A program made the position numbers and the translations under genes. Positions 37,527-57,709 of a DNA stretch of 64,000 nt are shown here, piece by piece (positions within the stretch are counted from its first letter, which is position 1; the number at the start of each line of letters is the position of its first letter). The notes beneath the pieces were generated by a model. That model was not told the DNA's origin. It ran no database searches and worked only from the letters and a program-made list of their open reading frames with translations. The stretch covers positions 48,112,001 through 48,176,000 of the forward strand of contig OZ296654.1 in the NCBI GenBank assembly GCA_965655095.1, read 5' to 3'. Source of the stretch: Haplodiscus bocki. Lineage: Eukaryota.

Positions 37527-38469
37527 TGAAATACTGCAATATTAGTTGTCTTCCCAAGAATCCCAAGAGTTTCAATTTACATCCATTTACTTGAAAATAA
37601 TGTAGAACATTAAAATGCGAAAATTTTAAATTTGACCGAAGTCTATAGTTTTTGAAACAGGTTAAAATCCAGCCTTAGCATGTTCAGAACTCCCCCTATG
37701 TTATTCTTTGGTCTGTCAAATTGCCAAAACTTATTCGAAATCAACTCAAATCAAATATGTTAAAGTATGCACAGGAAAAGCCAAAATGAACAAGCTTCAG
37801 ACTTCGCCCTTTTTTCCAACAAACCAAAAAGGTTTCTTACAATTGTATCTGTTTCAGGCACCAGATCATTGGCCCAGTGAGCTTCCACTTCCTGCACTGC
37901 CACGTTTTTCACTAACTTGACCGCCTATTTGCGATTTCAACTTCAATTCCGTCTCAATTCTGGTCAATTGACTCAAAAATCTGTTACTCTAATACCTCTG
38001 GGTTTCAAAACTGTTTTTTCCCTCTCTTCCCTCTACTTCAAGTTCATTGTCAATAAATCCCAATAATCCTCTTTTCTTTGAAACTGCATCTACTTATTCT
38101 TCTAATCCAGACTGCTTTCCCTCTTTTCAAGCAATATCGACTATTAGCAACTCACCATTCCAAGAATAGCTCGCTCTATCAATGAGTGCATCACTCTGCC
38201 ACCATCACAACGACTTTTTGCATTTCAGATCACATACCAGGCCGTTTTCCAAGAAGTTTATCTGGATGACGATTTCATTTTTCCGTTGAATTTTGAACAA
38301 GACGACATGAGCAACATTCCTCCTCATCCACGCTTCTTTCAGTTTGTCATCTATGTACCTCCGCCTCTCCTGTTAGTCATCCTGAACACATCGATGACAC
38401 CTCTTCACAGCTCTTCAGTTCACTTCCCCGTATTGTTGGTAACACCTTTCTTGAAAACCAAACTTTCAA

Positions 38470-39386
38470 ACTTCTTTTAATGAAAGCAATCTTGCATCCG
38501 CACATTTTTTTGCTGGAAGTTTTCAATTGTTCTTCTTCATACTTGTCCCGGTGTCTTTATTTTTTAAAATTTTTCTGAATTTTCAATATCACCCAGTTTA
38601 CACAAACTTGTCTCCAACTTTCATTTTGTTCTTCATGAAATGATTTTTCAAATGAAATTTCAGAACTTTCTCAAATTCTCTCAACTCTCCATCATGTAAT
38701 TAACAACAGTTCCACTAATTTGAATTTGTCTCCCACCTTTTCCCATTTTTCAATGACCTCGGAAAGCATAGTAACTTTCGAATAAGCTATGAACTTTGAG
38801 TTCCAAGTTTTCTTCATATTGGAACTACCTAAAGAAAAATTGAAAAAGTTAAATCGAATCAAGGTCAAAAACAAAAATTATAAATAGTGATGCTAAGCAG
38901 TGTGGTTTTGTGCTATCGTGTTTCAACTCTCACTAACGTAATGAATCGTACTACTTTCAAAAAACTCATACTTAGTCCAGAAAGTTGGTTGCTGTGAAAG
39001 TCAAACTCGCGCTTCTGGGGAGATTTTGCGGCCTCCGAATTAATGTTCAATCTCACGGCAGCCAAGAAATCTAAACTCAAGCATAACTTGCGCTAACCCA
39101 ATATTTAATTTGAAAAAAAATTATCAGAAAGATTCTCCACTGCAAGTGACACGCCAATTCCTTCAATTCCGGTCGGATGTGGTACAGTCCTCAAATAATA
39201 GTTTTTCGGAGGTTTTCAACACTTTTACTGTAGTGTTAATATGCTCACAAATATCCGTCAAGTGAAATAATCCTAATTGATGCATAGTTAGTCGCTCTTT
39301 TCCGTAGAACCAAGATAACGTCTTTTGAAGTCCGTCTTTCTGAGCTCTCTCTAGTCTAAATTCTAAATCAAAAAGTTTCCTCAGGT
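38470..39386 (-). pseudogene. Decayed RI/NLR-type LRR coding remnant, copy 2
   Basis: A T-rich acceptor-like TTTTTTGTTCTAG precedes an open frame 39386-39163 (LRKLFDLEF...SEKLLFEDCTTSDRN*). Frameshifted LRR-like pieces follow: LKELACHL, VENLSDN, EFDFHSNQLSGL, KLVELLL/LHDGELREFEKVL, LETSLCKLGD. Confidence 0.5.
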
Positions 39387-40379
39387 CTAGAACAAAAAAA
39401 AAGCCTTCCTTTTCAGACCGTTCGAATCACACTTTAGAAGCAAATCGGTCGGCGTACACTCAGATGATCGTGTCTCAGTGAAGGCAACCTTTCTGTTCGA
39501 AATGTCCTTTCTTCTAGATATCTAATATAGCGGATACATGTTATCAACTCCTGTTTACAAAACGGCAACATCTGTCTGTTACATGGAGCTAACTTTTTAG
39601 GCATGATATCAATAATTTAAAGAATTAGGTTAATTGTATATATCATTAATGTGCCACTATACTAACAACTATTTACCAAACATCTTTCAGCTTATGCGTC
39701 CGTGGTAGTTGTAACCCGGTATTTTGTCAAGTTACTTTGAGCCTCGAAAATATACTTCTACACTTGTATCTGGATTTTATTTCGACTGTTTGTGTGATCG
39801 AGAAGAATTGATTGAAAAACCAAAGCTTTCGTTTAAAATTTTGACAGTTTTGCGTGGTTGACTCAGAATTTCTCAGAGCATGATTAGCAGCAAAAAAACA
39901 TCATCCTGGCTTGAGGCGGTCAAAAGTAACCATAATAGAGTGAGACGAAAAATCGCGAAAAACTGAGACGTGAATTCATTGAAAACGTAAACATTACTCC
40001 GTTTACAATTGACAATCGGGTTATCTTGAGCTGGGAATGTTGCATTGTGCTTTGTTTGTTATTTCCAGGATGCAGAAGCTTTGAGTTTTAGCATCACTTA
40101 GTAACTGGCAAGTTTTTACAAGGTGTGTTCGGGTCAGCCTGAGGCACTGGTTTTTAACCCTTTTTAACAGTGGATTCCTCATGCTTGCACATCTCTACTG
40201 TTGAAAAAATTATTTTGCTTCTTTAAGTTAGACAAGAATTGATTGTGACCTCCCTCAAGATTCGATGCTCTCTGGAGACACATGCAGCATTTCATTGAAC
40301 AGATACGAAATACGTGAAACAGTATCGGCCATAGTAATGCAAAAGTTCGACCTCAGAAGTTCAAAAATGATTCCCATTT

Positions 40380-40448
40380 TTATTCGGTAATGTTCTTTTC
40401 AAAAACAACAACATGCCCTCCTACAAATGGGTGAGGGAAGTCTGCAGG
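40380..40448 (-). CDS. Kelch-repeat protein, probable terminal exon (PADFPHPFVGGHVVVFEKNITE*)
   Basis: Completes a kelch repeat in exact 19-residue register with the two preceding repeats, but needs an AA acceptor at 40450-40449. The nearest AG (40443-40442) gives TSLTHL*. Confidence 0.6.
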   Translation of the reverse strand, partial: PADFPHPFVGGHVVVFEKNITE

Positions 40449-40483
40449 TTGAAAAAAAAACGAATTGAACTGATTGAACTCAC

Positions 40484-40658
40484 CTCTGACCATGAATTGC
40501 TTCCTGGGTCATAAATTTCAACACTTGTTTCATCACTAGGACTGTTACAATCACCACCAACTAAGTGGATTCTCCCATTAAATAAAGCTACACCACAGCC
40601 ACGCCGTGCTATTCTCATGCTGGCCACTCTCTTCCACGTCTTGTTCACAGGACAGTAT
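40484..40658 (-). CDS. Kelch-repeat protein, penultimate exon (YCPVNKTWKRVASMRIARRGCGVALFNGRIHLVGGDCNSPSDETSVEIYDPGSNSWSE)
   Basis: Classic kelch repeat (VGG...VEIYDP...W); acceptor TTTTTTACAG, donor GTGAGT at 40483; phases are consistent with the upstream exon. Confidence 0.9.
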
Positions 40659-41288
40659 CTGTAAAAAAATAATTCACAAATTATATTCAAATGTTATGCA
40701 TTGTAGAATTTTTTGAATGTCGTCTGTTTGAAAGAACACAGTTTTGATTTTCCATCACTCTTCCTTCTATGCAAGTAATAAAAAAAAACAAAAATTCTAT
40801 CCATAGTATCCATTTTTACACCTCCTTCAAATTCAGAGTTTATCCTTGTGATACTACATCATTCAAATTACTAGATCTGGTATTACATTTCATTTCTCAT
40901 TTTGTTTGTATGCTGATATCGGAATTCACCCATCAACAATTGAGACCTGAAATGAATTATCCGAACGCTCATATAGTCTCGCAGATCAACTGAAAGTCAG
41001 AATGTTTGTTTTTTTACCATTTTTTTTTCTAGAAACTCAACTACATCAAGGCGACAAAATTGTTTTAGAGACATCATGAGAAAAATAACTTTTCATTTTC
41101 ACTTTTTGACCACTTCATAAACTGCTTAAAGTTGGGCTTAGTTTTGGCGCAACTTTTGTTTCAATTTTTTCCAGAAATCGAACACCCAATTTTCGCATGA
41201 CCTGAACGTTCGTATAACAGTAAAGTCACTATATTTGGATACACTGATGTTTGCCTGATGTAATTGCATGATTAGATCCCTAGCTCAC

Positions 41289-41486
41289 TTCTCAGCGGAG
41301 GATAATTTGATATTGTCATTCACCCCTCCGAACACAAATATTTCATCATTAAAGGTAATCATCGCATGTCCAGATCGTTCGTCATTCATAGGTCTACACT
41401 TGCTCCATTGTCTTGTTGGCAAGTGTAGACATTCCACTGACGCTACTATTCTATCTTCTTCCGTGCGGCCTCCCGACACAAACAAT
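41289..41486 (-). CDS. Kelch-repeat protein, internal exon (LFVSGGRTEEDRIVASVECLHLPTRQWSKCRPMNDERSGHAMITFNDEIFVFGGVNDNIKLSSAEK)
   Basis: Two kelch GG motifs with W and M..R spacing; acceptor TCATTTAG (AG at 41488-41487), donor GTGAGC at 41288; the phase-2 end joins the next exon as K-Y-C-P. Confidence 0.9.
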
Positions 41487-41638
41487 CTAAATGACAACAA
41501 CAGTTGATTTAATAAGATTTACATTTGATTCATTGCATTTTGTGGAGTGGCCTTACGTGGAATAATTGATACTTTTGAATTGATTCAGCTGAATAAAAGC
41601 TGATTCCAGTTTTGCCAGAGAAAAGTTATGATAGACAT

Positions 41639-41836
41639 CCCAACGTTTGACTTTCTGCAAAACCTTGAAATTCCTGCCAGGAATCCGGGAAAAGCTTGGA
41701 TGGTATGCTGGCAGGAAACCTTGGATGGAGAAACTTGCTGGTAGGATTCTTGGATTTCAGAATTTCGTGGCAGAAATCCTGAATTTGCTGGATAATTTTC
41801 CATGATCTTAATGCATTCAGAAAGTCAAACGTTCGG
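41639..41836. mobile_element. ~200-bp MITE-like element with 19-bp terminal inverted repeats
   Basis: CCCAACGTTTGACTTTCTG (41639-41657) matches the reverse complement of CAGAAAGTCAAACGTTCGG (41818-41836) at 18/19. Internal short degenerate repeats (tgctggcaggaa-like). TSD unclear. Confidence 0.75.
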
Positions 41837-44199
41837 TTCGCATGTTAATAGCCTCAACAACTCTTTGTACACTACTGTTTTCTCGAATTAAACTACCTAC
41901 AAAAATTATCTGCTTGTCATCAAATGGATTTTAGTGCTTTTCAGCAACACACACAAAGAAATTTCGAAATGTTTACTCTCCAAGAGACTGTCGGTTACGG
42001 AAACTGGACATACAACAAGAACTAAAACAAAAAAAATAGAACATATCTTCTGCGAATGTCCTATTGCTGAATGATTTGATGGTTATTATATATATTGAAG
42101 CCATTGGATTGATCAAAGCCTAAAACGCGGAAATGCTGTAAATCTTGTAATTTTGTTATTGTAACCGTTTTGTTGTAAATTAGTTACAACTAGGACATCA
42201 GTACCGTAATGCCACCAGAGATTTTATATTTGGCATAAACTGTTCGATCATAGCTCTACTGACCAGTCAGCTTTCGACCAAAACAATGTTTCACAAAGAT
42301 GAAAAAAATACAAAGCAAATCGTATTATCAAATAGTTATGTTTTTTTAATACAATACTCAATTTCAGAATGTTAAAGATTTCTGAGAGCTTAACAAAAAT
42401 TGGTTTAGTTCAATCGAAGGAAGCATACCAAAAAAACTATTGTTTTGTGATATTTGCATTATAACAAACTCATTATAACCAGCGGTGCTAAGAAATTGTC
42501 AATATCTACCTGAGAATGTTGGAAATGTGTCAATTCTAGGAACCACAGCATCTCTACACCTTACGTTTGGAACAAAAGTTATACTATTCCTCAGTTAAAT
42601 TGAACAAAAAAATCTTTATAGTAGGATTATTACAACAAAAACGCATTATTTAAAACATGTGTAAAGCGATAAAGAATTTTGGCAACCAAAAATTTTGCTT
42701 CAGCCTCTGGTCCAAAATGTTTCTCCACTCTTAACAAAATAGATGCCAAAGTACTGATGTCTTACAATTTGGATTTCATACACTATCTGAAAAATTCTTA
42801 AAGTGCAAGCTATCCATGTCATGCTGTTTTAGTCTACTCGTATCACCCTTGTATCTTTCTGTGATTGTTTCGCAAATTGACGTGGTATATCTGGTAAAAT
42901 CTGCAAAGAGGAAATACTGAATTTATAAATTATCGATTTGACTTTCCTGAGAAGAGACTAGCTCCCTTCAGATACGCTTAGTCAGAAAATAGTTTGTTAC
43001 ACTAGATCCTTTTCGCAGTAACAAAACAAGCCACCACTCTTTTTTTCACTTCAACTGGTGATACCTTAAAATTTTTTTCTCGTCTTCCCTTCTTTTTTCC
43101 CAGATGCATTTTACTAATTTTTCTAATATTGCCATTTTACTGGCATTTTGTCAAATGAAGAATTTCATCAATTTTGGTCTCGTGTTTTAATTGCAAAGCT
43201 CTCTGATCTTACTCTTCAACTAACAGAAAAATCATTAAGCGATGATTTCATTCGTTCAAATCTTCCAGATCAATCACCATCATGGCGAGCGTTTTTTCGC
43301 CCTCCAAATCCATGTAATATTTAACGTATAGGGTTACAAGGTCATATTTTAGACTTAACTCTTTTCTTTAGTCCATCCTGGTTTTCTATTGCTTTTATTC
43401 AAACTTTCTGATGCACTGTCTATTTATTAACACAGTGTGGATTTTAATTCTTCACTACTTTGTTTTTTTCAGTTTGTATTATTGAAGAAGGTTTCGCCTG
43501 CAATTTTTTTTGCGTAATTAAACAATATGCTAAAGCAAAATATTGCATTTCTCAGCGTTTGCAATCATTGCTTTCTATTCTGCTTTTTCGCTATTTTCAC
43601 CTTACATTGTTCATAAATGCATATGGATCATGAGCAAAAAACTCAAACCATGACCTCAACATATGGAGCAAGAAAAGTCCAAAAATTCAAAAAAAACGAC
43701 CTTTGTCCTAATAGTATTGAAAGTTACTATCACACTCCCCTGTAACATCTCAATAAAGGGGTCGTTTTGGAAAAGCATCAGCAGAAAATACATTCTTGGA
43801 CTAGAAGTTTATCTCAATAAGAAAAAAGCCACCACTCTTTTTTTGCAATTCACTTTCAACACTTGAAAAAGCATTAACCAAAAACTGAGAGTACTAATGT
43901 TTAAAAATTCACTGGTTGCATACTGTGCCAGAAATTTATTCATTGAACTGTATCTGTAATTCTGTAGCTTGATATGCGTTCGAATTTATGGACGAAAATT
44001 GAAAGCATCAGGTTTTCCGACAAAGTTGAGAATTTGTGTTGTTTGGTGAAAATTTTTGGGACCGGAACGTATGAGTCGGGTTTTTGTTGCAAGTTTTTTC
44101 GGCAAAAATGGTAATCGACACGAATTTCCTCGAAATTCCTATGGAATGCTTTCCGTCGATAGAGAAATAAGCTTGGTGTGCTGAGTGTGTGATTTCCGA

Positions 44200-45551
44200 T
44201 CCAAATATATTACTGGGACCGACAATTCACTTACCTCCTCTGGAATGCTTCTTCGAGTCTCATCATTCATACTGAACTCATGGAGAGTGTTGCTACTTTC
44301 GGATACGTTTTCAAAAGGGGCAGTAATCCCCATATGTTCCCCACGTTCCGAAGTCGCTGTAACTCTGGTAGCGTGTCGCCCAGAGGACGCATTCATTGAC
44401 TGCCAGCTTGATTCTAGGGCTAATGATTTTATCAGTTGAGGTCAAAATTGCATTTGGATCCCATCCCCTACCGTGTCAACATTAATATCCATTTTACTGT
44501 CAATCTTTTCATTGGAACATCTTTTCAAAATTTGAACTTTCACCGAGCTCCCAATGGCTGACATATTACTACTATTATTCTCAAAACCCGTGAACTCCTG
44601 ATCAACAAGATCTTCGTTTACAGCAACACTTTGCTGCCTGTCACTCGCAGCGCTACCAAAAATAACTTATGGATCATGGTCATCTAACTGTCTAAGGAGC
44701 TCTCTTTTGACTGTCTTTTCCTTGGAGTTGAAACCATTTTTGTTTTAACAAATGACTTGTACTTGCAAGAACAATAGGCGAAACAACTAAAAAAAAATTG
44801 GAAATAAATGGCTGCCAAAACGCTTTTGAGACAATTTTTTGATGATTTCGCAGTTTGATCAGAAGTTTAGGCAACTAGTTTCCAATATTATTTTCGGAGT
44901 CCTGAAATCAGCTTCAGGCAAGTTCGGGCAAGGATTCCAGCTTTCGACCTTTTATTCCTCAGCCAATCAGAGTGTCCAGGTTGTTGACGTCACACTTGTA
45001 ACTAGACTCCATTTGAAACATCAAAAAGGTTAGGCCGCGCTTAACATAACATCATTGTGATATCGTCCTAAAAATAGCACATCGTTTGTAGATGAAAGTG
45101 AATGGCACCGGAAAATGATGAAAATTTATATTTGGTTGTAGCAAGCTAAGGTCAAGTTAGAAACGTCATAACCCGAAACATGATTTAATACATGATTTAA
45201 TCCATGAGAAAAGTTAGGTTCGAAAAATCTGGTGAATCCAGAAGCCTCAATGGGATGGTTAGAAAGCATCTCATATCGTCTAGCATGGTTACAGTATCAG
45301 AAGGAAATTACATGTCCTTAAGAACTGTATATTTCCAAACACGTACTAGAAAGTCGTTAGATGAGTAAATTATTGCAATATTTTGTGGCATAAATGAATA
45401 AATAGAATGTGTTCATGGGATTGATTATCATTCATTTTGGCGTGGTCATTAGCACCGTCTTGCAACCAATAAGCCTTTTCTGGAGAGTTAAAAAAATAAT
45501 CAGTGGTTGATTAGATAAAAAGATTTTTTTAGATGAAAAAACATGTAAAAC
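44200..45551 (-). mobile_element. 5' fragment (leader + gag N-terminus) of a Ty3/gypsy-type element related to the one at 45752-57709
   Basis: Colinear similarity (visually ~70%) to ~56365-57705; ATG at 44737 (MVST...) corresponds to 56871; SMNDETRRSIPE vs SMNDEAPRSIPD; similarity is lost below ~44200. Confidence 0.8.
44960..44970. promoter_or_regulatory. CCAAT box (CAGCCAATCAG) in the element leader, ~220 nt upstream of the gag ATG
   Basis: NF-Y-type consensus, identical in both diverged leaders (also 57089-57099). Confidence 0.45.
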
Positions 45552-45751
45552 NNNNNNNNNNNNNNNNNNNNNNNNNNNNNNNNNNNNNNNNNNNNNNNNN
45601 NNNNNNNNNNNNNNNNNNNNNNNNNNNNNNNNNNNNNNNNNNNNNNNNNNNNNNNNNNNNNNNNNNNNNNNNNNNNNNNNNNNNNNNNNNNNNNNNNNNN
45701 NNNNNNNNNNNNNNNNNNNNNNNNNNNNNNNNNNNNNNNNNNNNNNNNNNN
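45552..45751. other. Assembly gap (200 N)
   Basis: Exactly 200 N; the round number suggests a scaffolding placeholder of unknown true size. Confidence 0.99.
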
Positions 45752-45846
45752 GTATGGCCATAACCTTTACATTTTTTAACGAGAATACGTTAAATCATTG
45801 TGATTGATTAATCAATTGTTTCCGGTTTAGGACGTCCATTTCGAAA

Positions 45847-47175
45847 ATGAGAGCGTCCGGTGGTGTTTTTTCACATAGGTTCACTAGCCTTCGTCATTTA
45901 GATCCCAAATCCGAGGCACACAAATTACCCGATGAACGAGAAACTGAGAATTGCCAGAGAGTTTCGCAATTCGGTAATGTGGATATTGTTGTGGTGAGCG
46001 AGACAACAACTTCCCCACGAAAAATTTATGTTGGTTTTTCAGAGTTCACCAAATATAGCCAGAAACAAATCGTCAATGTTGGAGAAAAAGGATTGTGATT
46101 TGATTGTGGATGAAAGGCATTGTGTTGTGACAAGTAATGAGGAAGATGTATAGGATTTGGGTACATTTGTGAATGAGAAGTTGCAGTTTCTGATTGAGAG
46201 TGGTCTGGAGCAACTTGCTGAAGGTGAGAACTTGAATTTGGACGATATACTTTGTGGAAGTGTGGATGTTGAAGAAGGCGGTAATGGCGAAGTGAGATCT
46301 GTGTGCGCAGAGGTGACACGTGGAAGTAACATTGAGGCAACTGGAAATAGGATATCAGGTGGTGATGACATCAACCGAACTTTGCGGGAAAATTTGGGTA
46401 GTTCTAATGTCACTTCAACTCGAGTGCGCGCTGCGTGGCCTAATTACAGAAAAGGTGGAGTAATGATTTCGAAGAGGATGACGTGCTTTTTTGCAAATCT
46501 TTAGAGTTCGATGTGTTGAGTATATTTTGGAAAAGTTGGAGGCGGAGATTTGTCGAGGGGTTTTGTGACGGACGCGATTGAAAGAGTGCCAGAGAGTTTT
46601 ATTATAAGTGGTGCGTTTTCGACTCTGGAGAGTATTACACAACGGCAAGCTAATGAAAGAGTTCTGGGTCCTCGCAGAAGCGCAGAAGATGACATCTTGG
46701 TTGGCATTCCACCAGCAGGAGAGTTGTTGGGGAAAGAGAACGTGCACAACGAGAGAGCAAGGCATTATCCCAGTAAGTCTGCCAAATGTTTCATGAGGGA
46801 TTTTTTTGAACTGAATTCCCCATTCATCTAGATCCTAGTCATCCGACCACCAAATTTATTGTGGATCAAATGATCAAATTTGCTCATGCCGTAGGATTGG
46901 TGATGTCATTGGCGTGTTACGGCATTCTTGAGGATTTGTTGATGAAGGCAAGAGTGGGTAGTGGAAGCCAGCGTGTGACGTTGCGCTACCCTGCTTTGAG
47001 GTCGCCTTTCCCAAGTGTTGCGGGATCCAAAATGGGCGATAGTGTCGCTTCACGGTCGGCCTACTCATTGCCGTCTATAACTGAGACAGAAAGTAGTAAT
47101 TTTCTTGCTAACGAGAATGTGTTGCAACAGCCGTGTTCCAGTAGACAAGCTGATGTTTGTTTGGTTTTGGGGTAA
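45847..47175 (+). pseudogene. Decayed spliced gene 1 of unknown function, antisense to gag-pol
   Basis: Removing a 49-nt GTGAGC...TTTTTCAG intron (45994-46042) puts ORF 45847 in frame with ORF 46157, with one internal TAG. A second ~50-nt intron candidate is at ~46455-46504. It continues through ORFs 46550 and 46861. Confidence 0.55.
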
Positions 47176-47199
47176 GCTGGAAGTAAGAAGCCTGGGACT

Positions 47200-47889
47200 G
47201 ACAGTCTCAAAACTTTTCCAGCAAGTGAAGTTGAATGAGAAGAAGAAGAAGTCGCGTATGTGGAAGTGGTCAAGAGAAGGTCGGTTGAATCGGTTGTTTC
47301 CCAGTGGTGACGATAAAGGTGATTATGTGTTCACGGACCAAATATTGGAGCTTGCTCTTTTGCCAAAGTGTTTGCTGCGGGACGTGATGACCCTCTGGAG
47401 AAAAAAGAGTGCTTCTAATATATGTTGTGCAGTAGAAGCATTTCCATGAGGGCAGGAGCGTTTCATCAAAAAAACCCAATTATTAGCGAAATTATCCTTT
47501 TCGATCATATCAGAGGTTCAAGGAGAAGGTATTGTCCACAGAAAGTTCGTCGTTGGGGTAGAAGTGTACTAAATGGATTAAAACTGGAGGCTGAGCGTGA
47601 ATTCTACATGGAGTTGTACGTGCAGGATTGGGATTACAAAACGCCCTTGTATTGTGATGTTCTGGAAGGGAAACCATTTATGTTTACATCAGAAGAGTCT
47701 CGTGTCCGAGTCCAAATTTTTTCGTTCATAACGTTCTTGAAAAGTGGAGGACAGCTTTGGGCTCTGGAAAATTACAGGGCGCAGGTGGAAGTTGCAACCG
47801 GCCACTCAGCATCAATTGCTGATTTCGCTTGTGGTCCAGCTCACATCTCAGTTAGTGTTATTGGGTTTGATTTGTTATTTTTCAAGTAA
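47200..47889 (+). pseudogene. Decayed ORF 2 of unknown function, antisense to gag-pol (may continue gene 1)
   Basis: ORF 47422-47889 (155 aa, normal globular composition) and an upstream frameshifted piece. Confidence 0.4.
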
Positions 47890-48059
47890 TTTGTCATAGT
47901 AGGGTCAGCTTGTGGGTATTGAGACTAAATTTTGCTCGTTATGTTAAGGGGCCGTCATTTGGGGGAAAGAGAACGGTTTTTCTACCATTGTTTCACGATC
48001 CTGCTTGTTGCGGACCACTACGACTAATTGTCGGCATCTGAGTATCAGTTTTTTTGAAG

Positions 48060-49908
48060 GCAGATGATTGGTGACTATGTTGATTACTCATTGTGGTCGT
48101 GATGTTGCTGTTGTGAAAAGTACTGTTTTGCTGAGTTCACAATCGTCGAGTGCCGTTTCAATTAAAACCGACTGTTATTTTTTGTGGGGTGGAGTATATT
48201 AGGTTGCTGGACAAAATCCCAAGTCAGACGGCCGGGATACAATATCCATTTAATTTAGTGCCAGTTCAAGTGGAGAAACTCATGAATAAACTGAGTTTCG
48301 GTGTAAAGGGCAAAAGTGATATGTGTCCGTGGCTTGGTCTTTGCTAGTGCGGTTGTCAGGTTTATTGGAAGAAAAATGGACACAGTTGACACAGTAGTTC
48401 CTTAAATTGAGCTAGTTGTATAAACATGATGTGGTCAGGGCAACGGATTAGGTCCTTTGTTTTGTACAGTGAAGTTGTTGTTGTTTAGGCGTTGGAGGAA
48501 TCGAAATTGGATTTGTTCACCGGGATTTTAGTAGTGCAGGATATGTCAAGTCACTGACCATAGATTTTGTCCCTTATTAGCAGTAATTGGCAGCAACAAG
48601 AGTTTTATTTAGTCTTTAATGATGTGGTTTGAAAACGGGTGAGTTTTGCTTTCTTTGCTTTTGCTTGAATTGTTTTTATGTTAAGCTTTCGGTGCCCAAT
48701 TTATTAGAGTTGAGCTGTTTGAATACCTATTGGATTTGTTTTATCAAAGATTATTTTGAGGCTTTCAAACGATCCTCAACCGTTAAAAAGGGCCAATGTT
48801 TTTTCTTGTCCGGGAAATTCTTGGACTTTCTCCACCGTTTTTAGCGTCGGATTATTTCGAGAGACTGATTGCCGATGCTCTGTTGGGATTCAATTTTACA
48901 AACGTTCAGCTGCTAACAGTTTAGCAAATTGAGGAGAGGACGGACTTCCGGACGAAGGGAATGAGGGCTGCAAAAGGACAATTTGTTGTCGAGAGGGAGA
49001 AGAATGACACAGCGGCGACTGATGCCATTGCCAGCGCTGTTATGGGGAAATGTATAATCCACACGTTGGCAAAGGGAAGGCGTACATTGGATATGTATGC
49101 AAGGAGCTGCTCAAGCACCCAACAGTTAAGTCCGATTTAATGGTGGGTTTGGCTTCTTTTGACTATTGCGTTCTTTTCACCCTGCCAAAAAGTCAAGATG
49201 CACTTTCTTTCCCGACTGTTCCAAAGCTTCTTTGCTCGCGGCTGGTTGTCGAAGGAGTTTAACAATGTTCTTTTGGACAATTATCTTGAGTTTGTTGATG
49301 ATCTGCGGTTTATATAATTAGACAAGATGCATTTCGGCCCAAAAAATGAAGATACGGTCACATTTTTGTCATCAAATCCAGAATTGGCCAGACCAGAAAA
49401 TAACTCGTACGTTTTTTTTTGCATTTGTGGCACGTGGTTCAAGAGTTTCCAAAGGTGTCATTGGGTTCAACTGACAGAAGTTCCGTGGTTGTGCACTTGT
49501 CAGACATCATTGAGGCTCTACAAAGTTTTTATCGAGCAGCAGTTCAGAGTTGAATATTTTTATAAGTGCTGAGTCTGTTCTTCATGTGCCGACGTGTTGG
49601 CTGGTTTCGGAGATAAGGCGCTGCGACCGGGATACGAACTTCGGATGAGCGATGACTTTCATGATCGGGCTGAAATCCATGCTGATTTCACTAATGCCTA
49701 TATGAATGTTAGGCTTGCTGCAAATGTGGAAGCGGGTACTGAAGCTACTAAATCCCCTGAAACTCGAGAGAAGCTTCATCCACAGCGATGTCAGCCTGCA
49801 CAAAAGCCTCGTATTGATTGGGGCAAAACTTCTAAGGCTACTTCTGCCAAAGTTTTGGGTGCACAACTCCGTTCTCCTCGTTCAGGCCCCAGTGGTGGTT
49901 CCTTTTAA
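48060..49908 (+). pseudogene. Decayed spliced gene 3 of unknown function, antisense to gag-pol
   Basis: 47-nt GTGAGT...TTAAG intron candidate (48639-48685). After it one frame runs, with a few stops, FGAQFIRVELFEYLLDLFY...MRAAKGQFVVE, then by frameshifts through ORFs 49050, 49327 and 49594 to a stop at ~49906-49908. Confidence 0.55.
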
Positions 49909-50094
49909 TTTGTTTGTATGTATACTCCTGAATTTTGCAGTTTTGTTATTTTTTTGGGTTGATATTGTTGATGTTTAGTATTTTTATGCCACCGAACTCG
50001 AAACAAATGCAATGTGTGCAGAGACAAAAGTATTGTGAAAAGAAAAAAAGAACACAATATAGGTGCTAGAACAGATTCTTGCACGCCTCCTTAT

Positions 50095-51720
50095 CTCTAT
50101 AGTCTAAGTAGTTAGGGTTAGGATTAGGGTGCAAGTTATAATTACCACCTCCAGAGTGACTAAATTTGTCTTGCGGAGCGTCTTCTGTATTAGGATCATT
50201 TATTTTGGTCGATGGAGAGGGGAGACTTCGCGCTGATGATGGATTTCGTATAGACTCGTATGCAGGTTCGGTGCCTGTCTTGGATTCGGGTGATCGATTT
50301 GAGAAAATTGAACGGAGCATTTCTGGAATTGCCAAAAATTCCAACATTTGACCTCGCGTTTCAATATTGGGAGGATTTACTGTGCACGGTTCAGAAACGG
50401 GGCGTGTCTGCCGATTTTAACCGTTGCTTGTGTCATGAAAGTAGGAACGCAGTATAATCGAATAATCACAGTATCTGGTCACTGAGTGTGACTTTTAACA
50501 AAAATACGGGCGTTGGGATCAGTGTATATGATAGCAATATCAAACAAGTGTGCTCCAAAGTGTGTACAGATTATCTTGCGGTACTATAATGTTATCGTCA
50601 ATCTGCCTTTGGGCTTCCTAAAAATTGTCTTCAGTGGGATTTTTGTGATACTCTTTCTGGAGACGAATCATGTGTATGATTTAAGTAGTATTAGTAATAG
50701 TTTTTTGCGCAATGTAATTGCTGTTCGGTAGAATTTATTCTACTACAAAAAGTCCAATCCATATTAAGTCACAAGAAAAGTAGTTTTGACCCTTGATGGT
50801 ATGCTTTTGACTGAAGCTTAAAACAGTAGTAATTTTTTTCTCCAGCGAGGAAGATTTGGCTTTCTTGGGATAATAATTTTTCTACCTTTTGTAGGATTGA
50901 TTGACATTTTTCTTGGTTTTCTCTTACAAAGTTTTAGTTCTGCTAAGAAGTTGATCCGGAAAGTCTGTCGTGATCGCTATTGGGGTTGAATCGCCGTCCT
51001 AGTTTGTGATCTAGGTTTTTGTCCCGTGAATAGCTCGGCTTGGTTCACAATCAAAACTGGAATGGTAAGTTGCATTGTATATCTAGATTGCAATCGTTTA
51101 TTATTTGTGCCATTGTTTCCTATATTCGCCTTATGCCAACTTAAACGAGGTCTTAGATGTGGCATCGGCCCGTTCTAGGACTCCGATTGTTTGTGCACGT
51201 TTAGTTGATGCATGCTTTAAGTTGTTACCAAGTATTTCTGGTACTCCGTGTTCGGCTTGGGAGATAAAAACGCTTCCCTTGCCTGTGAAAATGAGTGTAG
51301 GCACGGCCGCTTGTCTTGTCATGATGTCTTCAATAACTTTGGTTGTGTCTGCTGCTGTGGGGTAAGACACTGGGTAAGCAAATGCGTACCTTCAAATTAC
51401 GTCTATACCTGTGATAATGTTATCATATCCTCCACTTGGCAGTAGTTCTGGTAATAGATCGATTTGCATGAGATCCTCGTAACCGAGATCCCTTTCTGGG
51501 CTGTGGATTAGTTTTGGTTTCATCCGTGAATTCTTTATGCGTTTGACTTGTATGCATACTGCACACTCTCGGACCCAGTTTTTGACATAAGTTGCAATTG
51601 AAGGGAATTAATTTTTTGTCGGAGTTCTTGCAAAATATTGGAAAGGCCTGGGTGTTTGCAGCTGATCCATGTAAGGATCCTAGTAACACTTCCAGTAATT
51701 CTCCGGGCCAGAGGACTTCC
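50095..51720 (-). pseudogene. pol: pol remnant: integrase (Zn-binding region, DDE core) and C-terminal tail
   Basis: MQIDLLPELLPSGGY (D at 51460-51458), IFTGKGSVF (TDxG decayed), QTIGVLER; tail with IDDNIIVPQDNLY and GNYNLHPNPNPNY. Confidence 0.9.
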
Positions 51721-52189
51721 AAATGACAAACTTCACCAAAGTCGGTCTAGTTTTGTCAGCACAATATTTCGTCCCTGATGATGATGCATTTTTGTTTCCG
51801 GAGTAATCCATGAAGCGAGCATCATTGATCAGAATTTGTTCATCGAAGGGTAGTCCCAACATTTCACGTTTGATGTTGAGTAAGTTGTGATCCGAATCTT
51901 GTTCGATAAGTTTGCGTGATGGTTTGGTTAACTACGCTATGTTAACAGTTGCTGTACCTTTGTGAAGGTCACTGGTGCTGTAAAACGACACTGTTATGAC
52001 CGGAAGTTCGGTTGGTATAGTGTGGCATGTTTTTTTAAGCTGCCAGAGTTGTCCTCAGTAGTTTCCTGTGAGTCTGTGGTATCGAGAGAGACCAGTTCCT
52101 CCTGCGCGATGCCTGTGGATTCAAATTTCATTTCAATTGGTTTAATAGGAATGTCTTTAGGATTTTTAGGATTCTTTTTGTCGTTAGGA

Positions 52190-52590
52190 TCAAGTTTCAG
52201 TCAGTATAGGAATTCAGCTGCAGTGTTCGTCTTTCCTGGTATATGTGCTATAGTGAAAACAATTGCAATACAAAATCACGGGCGTTCCATATTGGACGAG
52301 GAATCATTTTTTTCCCGAAAAATCGGGTGACTGATTTGCTGTCTGTCATGATATTCACAGGCTATGTTGTCCTCCTAAATATCTATCCCACTCCTTTGAA
52401 GGCTATTCAAAGGGGTGGGATTTTTTTGCTTGATAGGACATTTTGATTTGGGATGGACTAAATGTTTTAGATCCATTTGCTATAGGGGCATAGGTTTTGT
52501 GTGTTGACATATTTTTCTTATTTGGGTCGTCTTTGATTAGTACGGCGTATCCAGTTGCTTCAAACTATGCGTCTTTCATAAGGTCCAGTT
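52190..52590 (-). pseudogene. pol: pol remnant: RNase H
   Basis: LMKDA..FEATGYAVLI, YAPIANGSKTFSPSQIKMS, IMTDSKSVTRFF, IAHIPGKTNTAA. Confidence 0.88.
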
Positions 52591-52849
52591 GTTTAAAGGG
52601 TAGCGTTTGGCGCAGTGTCAGTTGGCAACATCGGTCCAAGGCTTCGTTGATTTCCTGAAGTCTTTCAATGTTTCTGGAGTGACCGGTATTTTGGCTTTAG
52701 CAATTGTCGCTTTGAGAATTTGGAATTACGGGGATGGTCGCTCTGCTAAGCTAGGTATATAGTTTCGATTATATGTCAAAAATACTTTATAGCGTTCACG
52801 TGCTTTTTTGGATGGTGGGAGTTTGATTTTTCTAGGATTTTAGCAATTT

Positions 52850-53580
52850 TTGGTTCTGTGGGCCACTCCTTGCTCTGTTATCGAACGTCCTAGAAAGTCT
52901 ATTTCTTGTACCCCAAGATGGTGTTTAGGCAAGCTGAGTTTCCGTTCTGCCTTTCTGTGACATTGAAAGACTGCTCGTAAGTTTTTGATCAACTGTTGAG
53001 GGATATATGCGGCAATACCAATATCATCAATATAATGTGCACATTGATCTGCTGTGATAACTGGATCAAGATATTCACGAATAAAACTTGAGAAGAACGT
53101 TAGGGAACGAATTGGTCCGTGTGCTAATCTACGGTTTGCAAATGTTCTGCTAGCAAAGTTAAATGCAAGCAGTTCAATTTATTGTTGGTCAGCTTTTTAA
53201 AGACAATGGTAGGCTTGGGAACAATCAAGTTTGCAAAACAAGTTTTCCAATGCCATGTGCTGAGCTGCGTCGATTAATGTACTGACTGGATGGTTATTAT
53301 TGATGTAGTCATTTTGTGTCAGGGTATTGACTTTAGGTAGGTCAACTAAGATACGTAGTTTCCCATTCAGTTTTCACTGTGCAAAAATTGCACTTGAATT
53401 TTTGGTGCAGGGTAGAGCTATGATGACGCGATACTTGTGTAGTAGGCCTACTTCTACCAAAATGTCATCTTTGAGTTTGATTGGGGCGAGAAGGCGTTGG
53501 CTGTTAGCGCTAGCATCCAGTGGTGTAAGTTGGACTTTAAACTTTCTTATTGACGATGTCAAACCGATGTCGTGCATAAA
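52850..53580 (-). pseudogene. pol: pol remnant: reverse transcriptase
   Basis: KLRILVDL, FCKLDCSQAYHCL, FNFASRTFANRRLAHG, YIDD at 53034-53023, IDFLGRSIT. Confidence 0.95.
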
Positions 53581-54289
53581 AGTCGTGAAAAATGGCAAGC
53601 AATGCTTCAGGGGCAAGCTTGGCCTCAAGTACTATTGTTCAGTCTATCTAATCGAAGTTGGTTGAAATTTGTGCCAGGGATTCATTATCGTTCTCTAATT
53701 TTTTCCAAATCGCGTAACTCGCGGAGAATACGCGTTTGTATGGGCATATGTTCCTTTTCTTTGCTTGATTTTTAGGTTTTGGGAACCAATAGGTTCCATT
53801 AAGTTCATCAGTTTTGGACGTTTTAAGAAGGTTGTTTTAATGGTGAATGGCGTCATCATAGATGTTATTTTAAAAATGTTTCACCGAAGTTGGGTTGACA
53901 GTTCTAAACTTTTTCGTTTGTTCAGGAATTAGTATCAAATAATTCGCTACGTGCAACTTTTTTTTTGAGTGTACACGGGTGATCAAGAAAATTTCTGATT
54001 TTCACCATCTGTTTCTTTTTCTTGTGTTGTTGAGCACCGGGCAATTAAGGAGGTCTTCAACATTTTTTAAGAGTTTAAGAGCAGCGAGGTTTGTATCATG
54101 CCTGTCGCTCGCTTTAATTTAGGTATAAAATAGTGATTGAACCGAAATTTTGGTTCGTTTAACCAGATGAATTATAGTTTCCAGTGGGTTTAATATCGGC
54201 TCCATAACTTTGGAAGATGTTCGATTTTCATTTTTCAGCTGCATTGAAAAGAAGGGAAATTTTAGCAACCCTTGACGGATATCGAGTTT

Positions 54290-54600
54290 TGTACTGTTGC
54301 GCTGAATGAAAAGCCGATCAAAGGGCTTTTGAGATTTGTCATGACTAGGTATTTCTTCTCAAAAGTAAAATGACCAATTTCGATTTGCAATTTTGTTGTT
54401 GCGATAGATGATTCTAATTGTCCATTGGCAACCATGATTTGGTACTCTGGTGGGGGGCCTTCGTCTAACATTGTATGTGGAGCTAATAATGGAACTTTGC
54501 ATAAGTCGGTTTCCGGAATGGCATCTGTCAAAGCGCCTGTGCCCATAAAGCCGTCGATGTTTAGCTCCCGTAAATTCATTGGAAAATGTAGCATAATGCG
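54290..54600 (-). pseudogene. pol: pol remnant: aspartic protease (catalytic D lost)
   Basis: IDGFMGTGALTDAIPE (DTG decayed to GTG), IMVANGQ, LIG, within ORF 54262-54780. Confidence 0.8.
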
Positions 54601-55259
54601 TTTGTTTTTCAAAGGTAGATTGGTTGATATTAGGCGGAACTTCGTGAATCCACGTGGAGATTCCTGGAGCTGCGGAAAGTCTTGGTCAACAATGACTGGG
54701 AGTTGCCCAATGTGGTTTGTGGTCCTGGAAGAAAACGAGGTATTGGTGATGTATCGGGTAAAAGTGGGTTTACTGTTCACAAATAAAATAATGCATACAG
54801 AAGTACATCCGATACATGCGACTCGGTGATTAGATCATATCTCTCAATTTGGTCATTCAGTTTGTTGTGGTTGTATGTACACTGTAGTTTCTCTTGATCA
54901 TATAGATTTGCATCCTAATAGGGGACGCAACCGTTTTGAGGGTCAACCAATTGTGGGTCGTGAGCAACGACTTCTGGAAAGGGTCTGAATTGATTATTGA
55001 AGTCTTCTGTGTAAACGTTTTTGTATGATGGAAGTGTTTTATGGATCATGTGGATGTTATTATCTCTGTCTTTGAATATGAACTTTTTCCATTTCTTGCT
55101 GCCAGACAACTGCTAGAGTTGCAGTTTTGTGAGTTCTTTGTGAATTGTTTACTACATTGGGCGGATCAGTAAAGACCTAATGTCTCACTGAAGTGTAATC
55201 CGACCCTTGGAGTTGTTGCTTCTTTAGCTCAAAAGATTTTTAAGAATGGACATAGGTCC

Positions 55260-56871
55260 CGTTTGGGTTGAATTTTTTTAATTCTGCCCTTCCATTGAGT
55301 TTTCCATTGGCTGGTCTTCGTTGAACCTTTCGGACCTATTTGCGGAATTAGGGAAGTCACAGCATTTTTCGGGAGGGTGATTCGTTCATTGACAATGTGG
55401 ACAAGGGGAAATTGGTTGGGATGTCGTGGGTTTCACGTCTTGAAGTGAAGGGTCAATTCTCTGTTTTTGTTCTTTCCTGATTCCTTGACGACAAACTCTA
55501 ATAAAGTGGCCTGATTTTTTTAATACAGGCATACAATCTTAGACTGTTTTTTTGTAGTTTATCATGTTAAGGTGTAGCTCTTTTTGTCGGTATATATATT
55601 TCGCCAACATTATCCAAGCCAATGAGTTCTAATTCTCTTTCAATATGTGTCACAATTTGGTCATTAGTATCATTTTCGAGATAGGCAAATTTAATTGATC
55701 GTTTTATGTGGGTTGGTAGTTCCCGGTGATGAGGCTGTCTATAATATGCTGTGCGTCGTTACCAATTGTTGAGTTCCTCCGAAAATTCGGATAGAAATCT
55801 CACATTGGGATCAAACGTGAGTTTGTGACATTTGTGGTTGGCAGTGCCTTGTGACTCTGGTTTATCGTTTTTTTCGTCGAAAAACATTTTAGATGTCCTC
55901 AAGAGTCTTTCTGTTTGGTGCACTGGTGTTTTTGAATGTCTCAATTTTTTCTTTCCGTAAGTGGGCGTAGAAGTGGTCGATTTTCATTGCCTCCGTCCTT
56001 GTTGGCTGAACTTGAAGCATTGTGTGGATTATATCTTCTAGGATTTCAAATTTTTCATTTTTTTCCATCGAAAACCAATGTGTTTGTGGATACTGGTTTC
56101 AAAATCATAGTTGCTTGTGGTAGTTGCTGGGATGTAAATCCCGCATTGGCCTCAGATAGACAGCTAATTGAATTGATCGAGACAGAGTTTTGATGTTTTT
56201 GTGTATGTTGAACTAATGGTAAGTTATTATTTTGTGATGCTTGTGTTGACAAAGTTTGATACTTGTGTGATGGGGTGTCGAGTTGTGTTAGAATTTGTGC
56301 GGTGGGAAACTCAGGGATTTGACTTGCTTGAGCTGTTTTTCCTGTCACCATGTGATGATAGTCGGTTCCTGGGACCAGAAATTCATCTAACTTGTCCGGA
56401 ATGCTTCTTGGAGCCTCATCATTCATACTCAATACACTGAGAGTGCTGTTCCTGTCAAATATTTATCGAAAAGGTCAGTATTTCCAAAATGTTCCCCACG
56501 TTCCGAATTCAGTGTAACACTCGTAGCGTCTCACCTAGAGGACTGCCAACTCCATTTTAATGGTAACGACAATATCAATGGCGGTCAAGAAAACGTTTTG
56601 ACTCCCATCCTCTACCGTGTCAACAATATTACCCATTTCCCTTTCAATCCATTCACTGGAAAAATGTTCCAATTTTAAACATTCATCGAGTTCTCATTAG
56701 TGGACATATTACTACTTTTGTTTTCAGAACCCGCAAAATTTTGGTCAAAATTACCTTCGTTGCAGGCAACAATTTGTTTAGTGCCACTGGCAGCGCTACC
56801 AACAAAAAACATCTTGATCATAGTCATCTAATTGGCTAAGGAGATTGTCCTATCAATCGAGTTGAAACCAT
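55260..56871 (-). pseudogene. gag: gag remnant with two CX2CX4HX4C zinc knuckles
   Basis: ATG at 56871; FDGKNEKFE, HKLTFDP, YLENDTNDQIVTHIERELEL; knuckles CLY*KKSGHFIRVC (~55490-55530) and CPHCQ*TNHPPEKC (~55360-55402). Confidence 0.85.
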
Positions 56872-57088
56872 AATTCCTATAACAATTGATTTGTACGTGT
56901 GAAAACATGAGGTGAATCAAGCAATAAAGTTCAAATTAAATAGCAACAATAATAAGTTTTAGGCAATTTTTGAAGATTTCTCAGTTTATTCAGCAGTTTG
57001 TGCAACTGTTTTCCAAATGTTTTTGGAGTTTTGAAATCATAATCAGGCAATTCCGGGTGAAGATTCCTCCTTTTGAATTTTTGTTGGT

Positions 57089-57099
57089 CAGCCAATCAG
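57089..57099. promoter_or_regulatory. CCAAT box (CAGCCAATCAG) in the element leader
   Basis: Identical to 44960-44970, at a similar distance from the gag ATG. Confidence 0.45.
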
Positions 57100-57707
57100 G
57101 GATTCCTCGTTGCTGTTGTCATGCCTGTAACTATATCTAAACATGATACATCAAAGAGATTATGCCGCTTTTAACATCACATCATTGTGAACTGTTTCTG
57201 AAAACAGCACCTCTTTTGTATATCAAAGTGGGTGACACCGAAAAAAAGAAGAAACATGCGATTTGGTTATTGCAAGCAAATAAGAAGTTAGAAACGTCAT
57301 GATAGAACCGAAGAAGGTAGAAGAAGGAGAAGGTAGAAACGTCAAGGTAGAATGGAAACATGATTTCTTGCATGAGAAAAAATGGAGGCGATATACTTGG
57401 TGAATCCAGAAGCCTCAATGGGATGGTTAAAAAGCATACCATATCATCTAGCATGGTTGAAATAACAGGTAAATTACTTGTCCTTAAGTCTCGTGTTTTT
57501 CCACAAATGTACATGAAAGTCGTTAAATGAAAAAATTAGTGCATTTTTTCGAGGCACAAATGAAATTATAGATTGTTCCCATGGGACTGATCAACATTCA
57601 ATTTGGGTGGTCATAGCGCAGTGATTAGTAACGTCTTTTGACCGACAAGTCTTTTTCAGGAGAGTTTTTATTGAAAATAGTCGCTGGTGGATTCGATTAA
57701 GATACTT

Positions 57708-57709
<2 letters not shown>

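Follow-up and report, generated by a model that had tools for sequence, protein, structure and literature searches.

The window analyzed here, a 64,000-nucleotide stretch of the Haplodiscus bocki genome, contains an interval in which protein-like frames on the plus strand run antisense to a retroelement and are broken by short GT...AG segments. The question this locus raises is whether the interval derives from a spliced gene and, if so, what that gene encodes. The interval holds a dead copy of a cargo gene that, in a Ty3/gypsy LTR retrotransposon family with young intact copies, lies antisense and downstream of pol. In intact copies this gene has four exons separated by three gaps that are likely spliced out; its predicted product, of ~1,290 residues, is probably a hAT transposase that has been disarmed. 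Taken alone, the window copy, being dead, holds little interest. Its features are listed below; A, B, and C denote the gaps between exons, and stretches 1–3 are the introns of the original prediction.

44178..45527, minus strand: repeat, 70% similar to 56366-57708, including a gag N-terminus
45789..45849, plus strand: conserved block up to and including the start codon, a candidate promoter/5' leader (84% to a young copy)
45847..47850, plus strand: exon 1, 639–668 codons when intact, here with stops and frameshifts (tblastn 43–55% to exon 1 of locus L036, in three pieces)
45994..46042, plus strand: stretch 1, exon 1 coding sequence with one extra base in the window copy (sister alignment)
46455..46504, plus strand: stretch 2, exon 1 coding sequence (sister alignment)
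47851..~48003, plus strand: remnant of likely intron A; donor GTTAGT kept, acceptor and start of exon 2 gone with a deletion of ~80 nt
48004..48406, plus strand: exon 2 remnant, 162 codons when intact (tblastn 43–56%; alignment)
48407..48488, plus strand: likely intron B; donor mutated in the window copy, acceptor TTTAG kept
48489..48605, plus strand: exon 3 remnant, 45 codons when intact (tblastn 57%)
~48606..48678, plus strand: remnant of likely intron C; donor deleted, acceptor mutated; holds most of stretch 3
48679..49908, plus strand: exon 4 remnant, 420–422 codons when intact (tblastn 41%)
50108..56843, minus strand: decayed gag-pol of the carrier Ty3/gypsy element in PR-RT-RNaseH-IN order (tblastn 33–74%, many frames; Pfam on young copies)

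The location within a retroelement, antisense to gag-pol, had been correctly predicted, and is confirmed by tblastn and by the orientation of cargo and pol in sister loci. Among 40 loci chosen by cargo similarity, all 38 that hold both genes have the cargo downstream of pol and on the opposite strand. Pfam matches in the young copies L051 and L036 reveal gag followed by pol (PR-RT-RNaseH-IN), and decayed homologs of both are present in the window. LTR pairs were found in 13 of 20 sister copies and are at least 98.9% identical in eight of the 20; in L056, a TGG-initiated stretch, a candidate tRNA-Val primer-binding site, follows the 5' LTR. For the window copy itself no 3' LTR can be seen, an N gap (45552-45751) following the repeat at 44178..45527. 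This repeat and its 70% similar partner at 56366-57708 were rejected as the LTRs of the element, and the window copy was left undated from them, because the pair includes a gag N-terminus. The repeat at 44178..45527 is probably the 5' part of a neighboring related element rather than a plain 3' LTR. In a check for the terminal inverted repeats of a hAT transposon, no inverted repeat of at least 40 nt was present in the window region. Assignment of the cargo as an env-type ORF3 (sense, with envelope domains) was rejected, since the cargo is antisense. The family also has a separate sense ORF, P0002, for which no Pfam match was found.

Five intact copies have stop-free phase-0 exons totaling 1,268–1,297 codons, with a predicted product of 1,268–1,297 residues. 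Exon 1 begins with an acidic, low-complexity N-terminal half, followed by a CxxC...H...H finger; this C2H2-like motif, of CxxC-x16-H-x5-H type, is conserved in seven of seven aligned copies. Exon 2 is predicted to form a three-strand/helix run (low-confidence model), and exon 4 an all-helical domain with a basic tail (model of an intact homolog, pLDDT 81). Immediately 5' of the ATG, a CACGTG-containing block is present in 5/5 intact copies compared and may act as a promoter.

The cargo gene occurs as three subfamilies (A–C). Between them, exons 2–4 and the end of exon 1 share 56–72% amino-acid identity, with synonymous sites saturated, and the N-terminal half of exon 1 shares ~42%. Within subfamilies, dN/dS is 0.03–0.24; the cargo exons are under purifying selection. 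Two distant homologs tested against G000 gave no close match (best 33% for one, none at E 1e-60 for the other).

Three lines of evidence, each weak, suggest that the cargo protein is probably a hAT transposase lacking a recognizable catalytic triad. In a VIA search of 48,161 chains, Hermes transposase (8edg_A) ranked fifth, tied with the top (rmsd 5.3, 188 aligned), at a Z score of 6.1 that is under the bar of 8 and commonplace for helical models. The alignment places model residues 1-315 on Hermes 338-609, and it alone among the top 20 rows passes residue ~166. HHalign to a hAT profile returned two collinear matches of 183 and 141 columns, with a pair score of 48.4, where none of 14 controls exceeded 36.3; E-values for the hAT matches, 0.008–0.13, do not reach the tool's bar. 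The cargo finger, which has no Pfam match, aligns to the hAT finger at an E-value of 0.008. Exon 2 alone and exon 4 alone gave wrong-place matches or none against hAT, and neither global HHalign nor HHalign against an Ac/Hermes-type alignment from the same genome returned anything. In the Atlas, two hAT-family rows score 0.83, under a 0.9 bar, and the search with exon 2 contained no hAT row. For P0080, a read-through protein, the model (pLDDT 37) proved unusable and was left out of structure searches.

The predicted parts of the cargo follow the order of those in hAT transposases (Hermes, PDB 8edg, and the DUF4371/PF14291-type hAT of this genome): a finger, a strand–helix core, a helical region, and C-terminal helices. 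The cargo differs in having ~450 extra acidic N-terminal residues and in being embedded in a retrotransposon. With positions judged by eye, strand 1 contains no Asp of a DDE triad in 10/10 rows, and exon 4 contains neither an invariant or near-invariant Glu in a 28-row alignment nor an ERxFS motif.

Alternatively, the spliced antisense gene may be real and its protein not hAT-derived, being instead a captured host gene or a lineage-specific zinc-finger/helical-bundle protein. Searches of Pfam, PDB sequences, Foldseek PDB, and BFVD without a match to the cargo protein favor this reading, as do HMMER profiles that find nothing in 40 hAT loci of the same genome beyond a nested cargo fragment, and the frequency of comparable Z scores noted above. 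However, hAT is indicated by three methods, two of which place their matches where expected, and the hAT reading was set out before the profile and fold results; a non-hAT origin is considered fairly unlikely.

The preferred hAT derivation probably began when a hAT DNA transposon with introns inserted, in reverse orientation, into an ancestor of the element; the ends of the transposon and its recognizable catalytic triad would then have been lost. The protein may, at somewhat less than an even chance, act in trans as an activator or anti-silencing factor, binding DNA of its own element through its zinc finger and an oligomeric scaffold and keeping the family expressed. Such self-regulation would explain how three deeply diverged cargo versions persist on interchangeable backbones, which are 84–94% identical. 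It is unlikely that the hAT derivative, rather than regulating transcription, partners the element's integrase in targeting integration or in tethering to chromatin. The finger, transposase-like scaffold, and basic tail (all predicted) would suit that role, as would nuclear roles proposed for plant antisense ORFs in the available text of a review (PMC7264820), but a tight partnership fits poorly because the cargo versions (62–69% identical) are far more diverged than the pol regions carrying them (87–92%). More tentatively than for regulation in trans, it can be speculated that this retrotransposon domesticated a DNA transposon, turning a spliced, catalytically dead hAT transposase in antisense into its own accessory DNA-binding factor, with ancient swappable versions on one recombining backbone that are shared with repeat families in other genomes. 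Several such versions and their sharing with other genomes would suggest an arms race over specificity or anti-silencing.

The antisense layout is already known from plant antisense ORFs and fungal brtn. As described in the available text of three sources (PMC7264820, PMC11963269, PMC4093653), plant Ty3/gypsy elements carry antisense ORFs between pol and the 3' LTR (aORF-3R), including maize Grande gene23, rice RIRE2, Silene Retand, and bean pvRetro13, and the Retand ORFs carry a 'transposase 28' domain. The accessible portions of the 2020 review give their function as unknown with a proposed nuclear regulatory role, describe the origin of antisense extra genes as unknown and similarity to other transposons as lacking, and merely call for a search for antisense spliced transcripts (PMC7264820). 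The word 'intron' is absent from the text of PMC11963269 and PMC4093653. As far as these partial descriptions go, the cargo matches aORF-3R in position, orientation, and family-wide conservation, and is larger (~1,290 residues, against 436–868 for the bean ORFs); unlike aORF-3R, it has no PF04195 match. The brtn gene of fungal Boty/BcGypsy1 has the same antisense position between pol and the 3' LTR, according to the available text of papers citing it (Zhao et al. 2011, cited in PMC7264820, PMC8365987). The cargo is distinguished from brtn by its large size, CxxC...H...H finger, and hAT-like features.

HBZ of HTLV-1 is a small bZIP protein, expressed from a spliced transcript driven from the 3' LTR. 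Like the cargo, HBZ is an antisense accessory gene, characterized in the available text as a retroviral nuclear regulator (PMC11963269); the conserved block upstream of the cargo differs in lying ~1.6 kb inside the element. LTR retrotransposons of bdelloid rotifers likewise are animal elements with captured genes downstream of pol, with ORF3 captures in the env position (env, DEDDy, GDSL) expressed via spliced messages; in the accessible part of that description, 'intron' occurs zero times and no antisense gene is mentioned (PMC5408684). A large spliced, probably transposase-derived antisense cargo was not found in the literature searched. The family offers a testable case: young intact copies, among them L036, L074, and L085, are numerous, the predicted junctions are exact (in L036, 4681/4906, 5391/5470, and 5604/5678, opposite to the pol strand), purifying selection is strong, and a DNA transposase is a candidate origin.

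In intact copies the coding sequence is interrupted by three likely introns, phase 0 and GT-AG, at positions identical in the three subfamilies. Sister copies retain the splice sites of intron A (GT 40/44, AG 38/44), intron B (GT 40/44, AG 38/44), and intron C (GT 38/44, AG 42/44), and the intron C donor GT is present in 54 of 59 exon-motif matches genome-wide. When exon ends were predicted by protein homology alone in the two other subfamilies (19/20 loci usable), GT was found at 54/57 and AG at 54/57 junctions. Lengths across the three subfamilies are 224, 169–181, and 180–195 nt for intron A (139–226 nt overall), 78, 75, and 72 nt for intron B, and 73–80, 69, and 63 nt for intron C. Intron interiors are 45–58% identical between subfamilies, no more alike than shuffles (means 46–53%); within subfamily A, conservation at the level of the splice sites (≥0.85) is reached by 51 of 336 interior dinucleotides. 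Intron C is retained in 59 matches with a 60–90 nt gap, against 0 copies with a gap of 0–30 nt. With conserved GT/AG at homologous exon ends and free interiors, A, B, and C are likely U2-type introns, and their removal is predicted. A trans-splicing or operon arrangement, considered for an acceptor-like TTAG before the ATG and a TGA before acceptor C, was rejected because subfamilies B and C lack this TTAG and every acceptor has a conserved donor upstream of it. Four sequencing runs show even, DNA-like cover, and none of the joints listed falls at A, B, or C, which is not evidence either way.

It is very improbable that the gaps are left unspliced, with the gene translated as several separate ORFs or with the gaps serving as coding inserts. 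Introns B and C of subfamily B have lengths divisible by three and lack stops in some copies; frames of 696–699 residues cross both gaps without a stop in 3/10 loci, and the same read-through is seen in P0080, P0088, P0091, and P0099. Against this, the length of gap A is free and that of gap C variable in subfamily A, stops lie inside the gaps in subfamilies A and C, and homology ends exactly at the GT and restarts after the AG.

It is highly likely that the gene has a promoter of its own, close to the conserved block 5' of the ATG, and that its transcript is spliced. The cargo sits backwards between pol and the 3' LTR. On the strand of the genomic RNA the introns read CT...AC, and so would not be removed from packaged RNA; they would be kept and copied by reverse transcriptase into each new insertion. 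The earlier proposal that antisense introns survive reverse transcription is supported in principle by the family, a natural demonstration that backward-facing introns persist in a retroelement, and fails for stretches 1 and 2. Repeat annotation that relies on ORF length would fragment such genes or overlook them.

The original prediction recognized neither intron A nor intron B. Its three GT...AG stretches exist as described (49, 50, and 47 nt), shorter than the family introns (62–226 nt). Stretches 1 and 2 both belong to the coding sequence of a single exon of ~2 kb, and sister copies read through them in stop-free frames of up to 711 residues. Their splice dinucleotides are not conserved in the family alignment: among 41 aligned sisters, stretch 1 is 48 nt (16 codons) long in 40, with a donor GT in 20 and an acceptor AG in none, and stretch 2 has a donor GT in none and an acceptor AG in one. 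Stretch 3 (48639-48685) does overlap intron C, with both ends misplaced. Its GT is interior to the intron and present in 14/44 sisters (an alignment-dependent count), and its AG falls within the exon, 7 nt beyond the family acceptor, and is present in 40/44. That all three are genuine introns newly arisen in the window copy is scarcely credible: the dinucleotides are present and excision of stretch 1 is in frame (phase 0 with the ATG at 45847), but they are not conserved, their number matches chance expectation, and they lie in a copy in which every exon contains stops and gag-pol is broken. A relaxed scan of 45800-50000 for GT..AG segments of 45–55 nt finds 10 on the plus strand and 0 on the minus strand; Markov resamples of the same scan average 3.8 and yield at least three in 225/300, so three such stretches are not above chance.

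Three short introns had been proposed on the plus strand of the window. The GT...AG stretches are present at the predicted lengths (stretch 1, 45994-46042; stretch 2, 46455-46504; stretch 3, 48639-48685), the first in frame with an ATG at 45847. Three such stretches are expected by chance in this region: resampled sequence yielded a mean of 3.8, with 225 of 300 trials giving at least three, and a relaxed GT...AG rule applied to the real sequence returned 10 on the plus strand and none on the minus strand. A DNA search of the Haplodiscus bocki genome listed 68 matches, other copies being mostly 64-77% identical, and sister copies were aligned (n = 41; 46 tried, five without an anchor, three duplicate loci left out). 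Stretch 1 is 48 nt long in 40 of 41 sisters, the window copy having one extra base, and carries GT in 20 and AG in none; at stretch 2, GT occurs in 0/41 and AG in 1/41. The splice dinucleotides of these two stretches are thus not conserved across copies. In several copies a single stop-free frame of 500-711 codons spans both. From the sister alignment and the open frames, stretches 1 and 2 are rejected as introns and assigned to the coding sequence of a long exon 1. Stretch 3 starts within a real intron and has a misplaced end, 7 nt into the following exon.

A search with a better-kept copy led to a young group of elements at 96-99% identity. An LTR pair is present in 13 of 20 fetched copies, with LTRs at least 98.9% identical in eight, and the domain order in young relatives (zinc knuckle, protease, RT, RNase H, integrase; Pfam) is that of Ty3/gypsy elements. 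The features at sister locus L036 and in the window are as follows.

L036:~2535-2612, upstream conserved block, in the same place in sister loci L073, L074, L082, and L085
L036:2678-6946, plus strand, cargo gene from ATG to stop, exons of 668, 162, 45, and 422 codons
L036, plus strand, gaps A, B, and C between these exons, 224, 78, and 73 nt, each in phase 0 with GT...AG ends
L036:909-1895, minus strand, second extra (sense) ORF, in 39/40 loci and absent from the window
Window ~56843 down to 50108, minus strand, decayed gag-pol, by homology to young relatives

L036 belongs to subfamily A of three diverged cargo versions. Across 44 copies of this subfamily, donors read GT in 40 (A), 40 (B), and 38 (C), acceptors read AG in 38, 38, and 42, and lengths are 139-226, 62-87, and 73-80 nt. 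This conservation is not unique to splice sites, because 51 of 336 interior dinucleotides also reach 0.85; the decisive test is the comparison between subfamilies. Protein searches identified two further subfamilies at ~57% identity, the third subfamily with no fewer than 100 listed matches. Junctions extrapolated from tblastn alone at 19 of 20 loci of these two read GT in 54/57 and AG in 54/57, with gaps of 169-195 (A), 72-75 (B), and 63-69 nt (C). Comparison across subfamilies gives 45-58% identity for intron interiors, versus means of 46-53% (maxima 50-65%) for shuffled sequence, and 56-72% amino-acid identity for exons (41-42% in the N-terminal half of exon 1), with synonymous sites saturated or nearly so; dN/dS within subfamilies is 0.03-0.24. 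A genome-wide pattern built from exon motifs only found 59 copies whose gap at intron C measures 60-90 nt, 54 starting GT, and no copy with a gap of 0-30 nt. Against splicing, gaps B and C in subfamily B are multiples of three and stop-free in some copies. From these sequence comparisons, we infer that introns A, B, and C are spliced out. Part of subfamily A has a tandem duplication of ~70 nt in intron A (L036:~4730-4850).

LTR elements are copied from sense genomic RNA, on which these introns read CT...AC. The splice sites and poly(A) signal of the antisense gene would face away from that RNA, and would therefore be neither spliced nor used, but copied intact. Such copying is expected from what is established about retroelements, and fits the CT...AC reading, the orientation of the cargo opposite to pol in 38/38 loci with both, and the lack of intron-C losses among the copies found. 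The principle of the original prediction, that antisense introns survive reverse transcription, is upheld; its details are not, and its observation is borne out in part. Transcription of the antisense gene would most likely start at a promoter of its own, close to the conserved block that precedes the ATG, and be followed by splicing and translation. A non-coding block ~70-140 nt before the ATG hardly differs among the three subfamilies; it has short inverted repeats and may act as an RNA element or an enhancer. Parts of L036 2000-2700 show much higher read depth.

The window (C7:48112001-48176000 of the 1.5-Gb genome) holds a dead cargo copy, downstream of a fragmented pol and on the opposite strand. 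Every exon contains stops; intron C has lost both splice sites, intron A its acceptor, and intron B its donor. Neither the genuine 3' LTR nor the sense ORF known from intact copies was seen for the window copy, and both may lie in an assembly N gap. Near this gap, a 70% repeat (window 44210-45527) contains a gag N-terminus; the stretch 44178-45527, with gag start and leader, is probably the 5' part of a second, neighbouring related element. Bases 1-~37000 consist of satellite DNA whose period is 9 bp, with higher-order repeats of ~1.2 and 2 kb. A host Kelch-repeat exon lies at 40484-40657 on the minus strand (PF01344, E 6e-12), followed by a GTGAGT donor; further exons of this gene probably lie at 38000-43000.

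The predicted protein is 1,268-1,297 residues long in all five intact copies checked. It has an acidic, poorly conserved N-terminal half, a CxxC...H...H finger (second Cys replaced by Ser in protein entry P0001), three strands followed by a helix in exon 2 (predicted by a low-confidence model), and in exon 4 a helical domain (model pLDDT 81) followed by a basic tail. Pfam, PDB sequences, Foldseek PDB, and BFVD gave no family name. Three weak lines make a hAT transposase origin probable. The Atlas search gave two hAT-related rows at 0.83, under the tool's bar, and showed no hAT row with exon 2. With HHalign, a DUF4371-type hAT alignment of 35 sequences matched collinearly from the finger through the first strands (183 columns) and over exons 3-4 (141 columns), at E ~0.08-0.1 each; the pair score was 48.4, whereas 14 reversed-and-shuffled controls reached no more than 36.3, and exon 2 or exon 4 alone gave no sensible match. 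Hermes transposase stood fifth of 48,161 solved chains, sharing the top value of Z 6.1, which the tool itself treats as inconclusive (Z < 8); 188 residues aligned (model 1-315 on Hermes 338-609), and the remaining top-20 rows are helical bundles ending by residue ~166. Judged by eye, the alignments contain no recognizable catalytic triad: strand 1 lacks an Asp, and no Glu is conserved across exon 4. A young hAT family at L113 and ~20 further places has identical scores and 624-codon open frames, and several other hAT families have frames of 591-652 codons.

As a putative nuclear DNA-binding protein, the product would act in trans for the element family. A role in integration targeting seems unlikely; action as a self-activator or anti-silencing factor is tentatively preferred. 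The antisense-gene layout is not new: earlier reports describe extra antisense ORFs in plants and the fungal Boty element that likewise sit downstream of pol and ahead of the 3' LTR, and call their origin and function unknown (PMC7264820, PMC11963269, PMC4093653, PMC8365987). Full-text searches of largely open-access literature, including passages of PMC5408684, PMC8220671, and PMC7175516, found no description of a hAT-like cargo that is both spliced and antisense.

A profile search gave 992 cluster representatives at E ≤ 0.001, and the 150 listed include full-length relatives at 25-30% identity. Four of 10 distant relatives checked form clusters of 20-84 members, and two tested had no close match in the H. 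bocki genome. Two of the relatives have an extra read-through insert near the exon 4 start, a hint of a possible further intron. L036 and L085 are 94% identical over LTR and sense ORF and 92% over pol versus 62-69% over the cargo; other cross-subfamily pairs, including L036 and L073, give 84-88% versus 65-68%. Backbone and cargo do not travel as a unit: either recombination has occurred around old cargo versions or the cargo changes much faster, and versions appear to have been swapped between near-identical elements. The sense ORF (~328 codons) occupies the interval from the antisense gene to the 3' LTR and overlaps the LTR by ~100 nt; its predicted product is rich in Pro and Ser, has a conserved C-terminus with a CxxC, and had no Pfam match. 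At L074, a second piece of cargo exon 4 inside the pol region (9205-9870, oriented) is probably a nested insertion.
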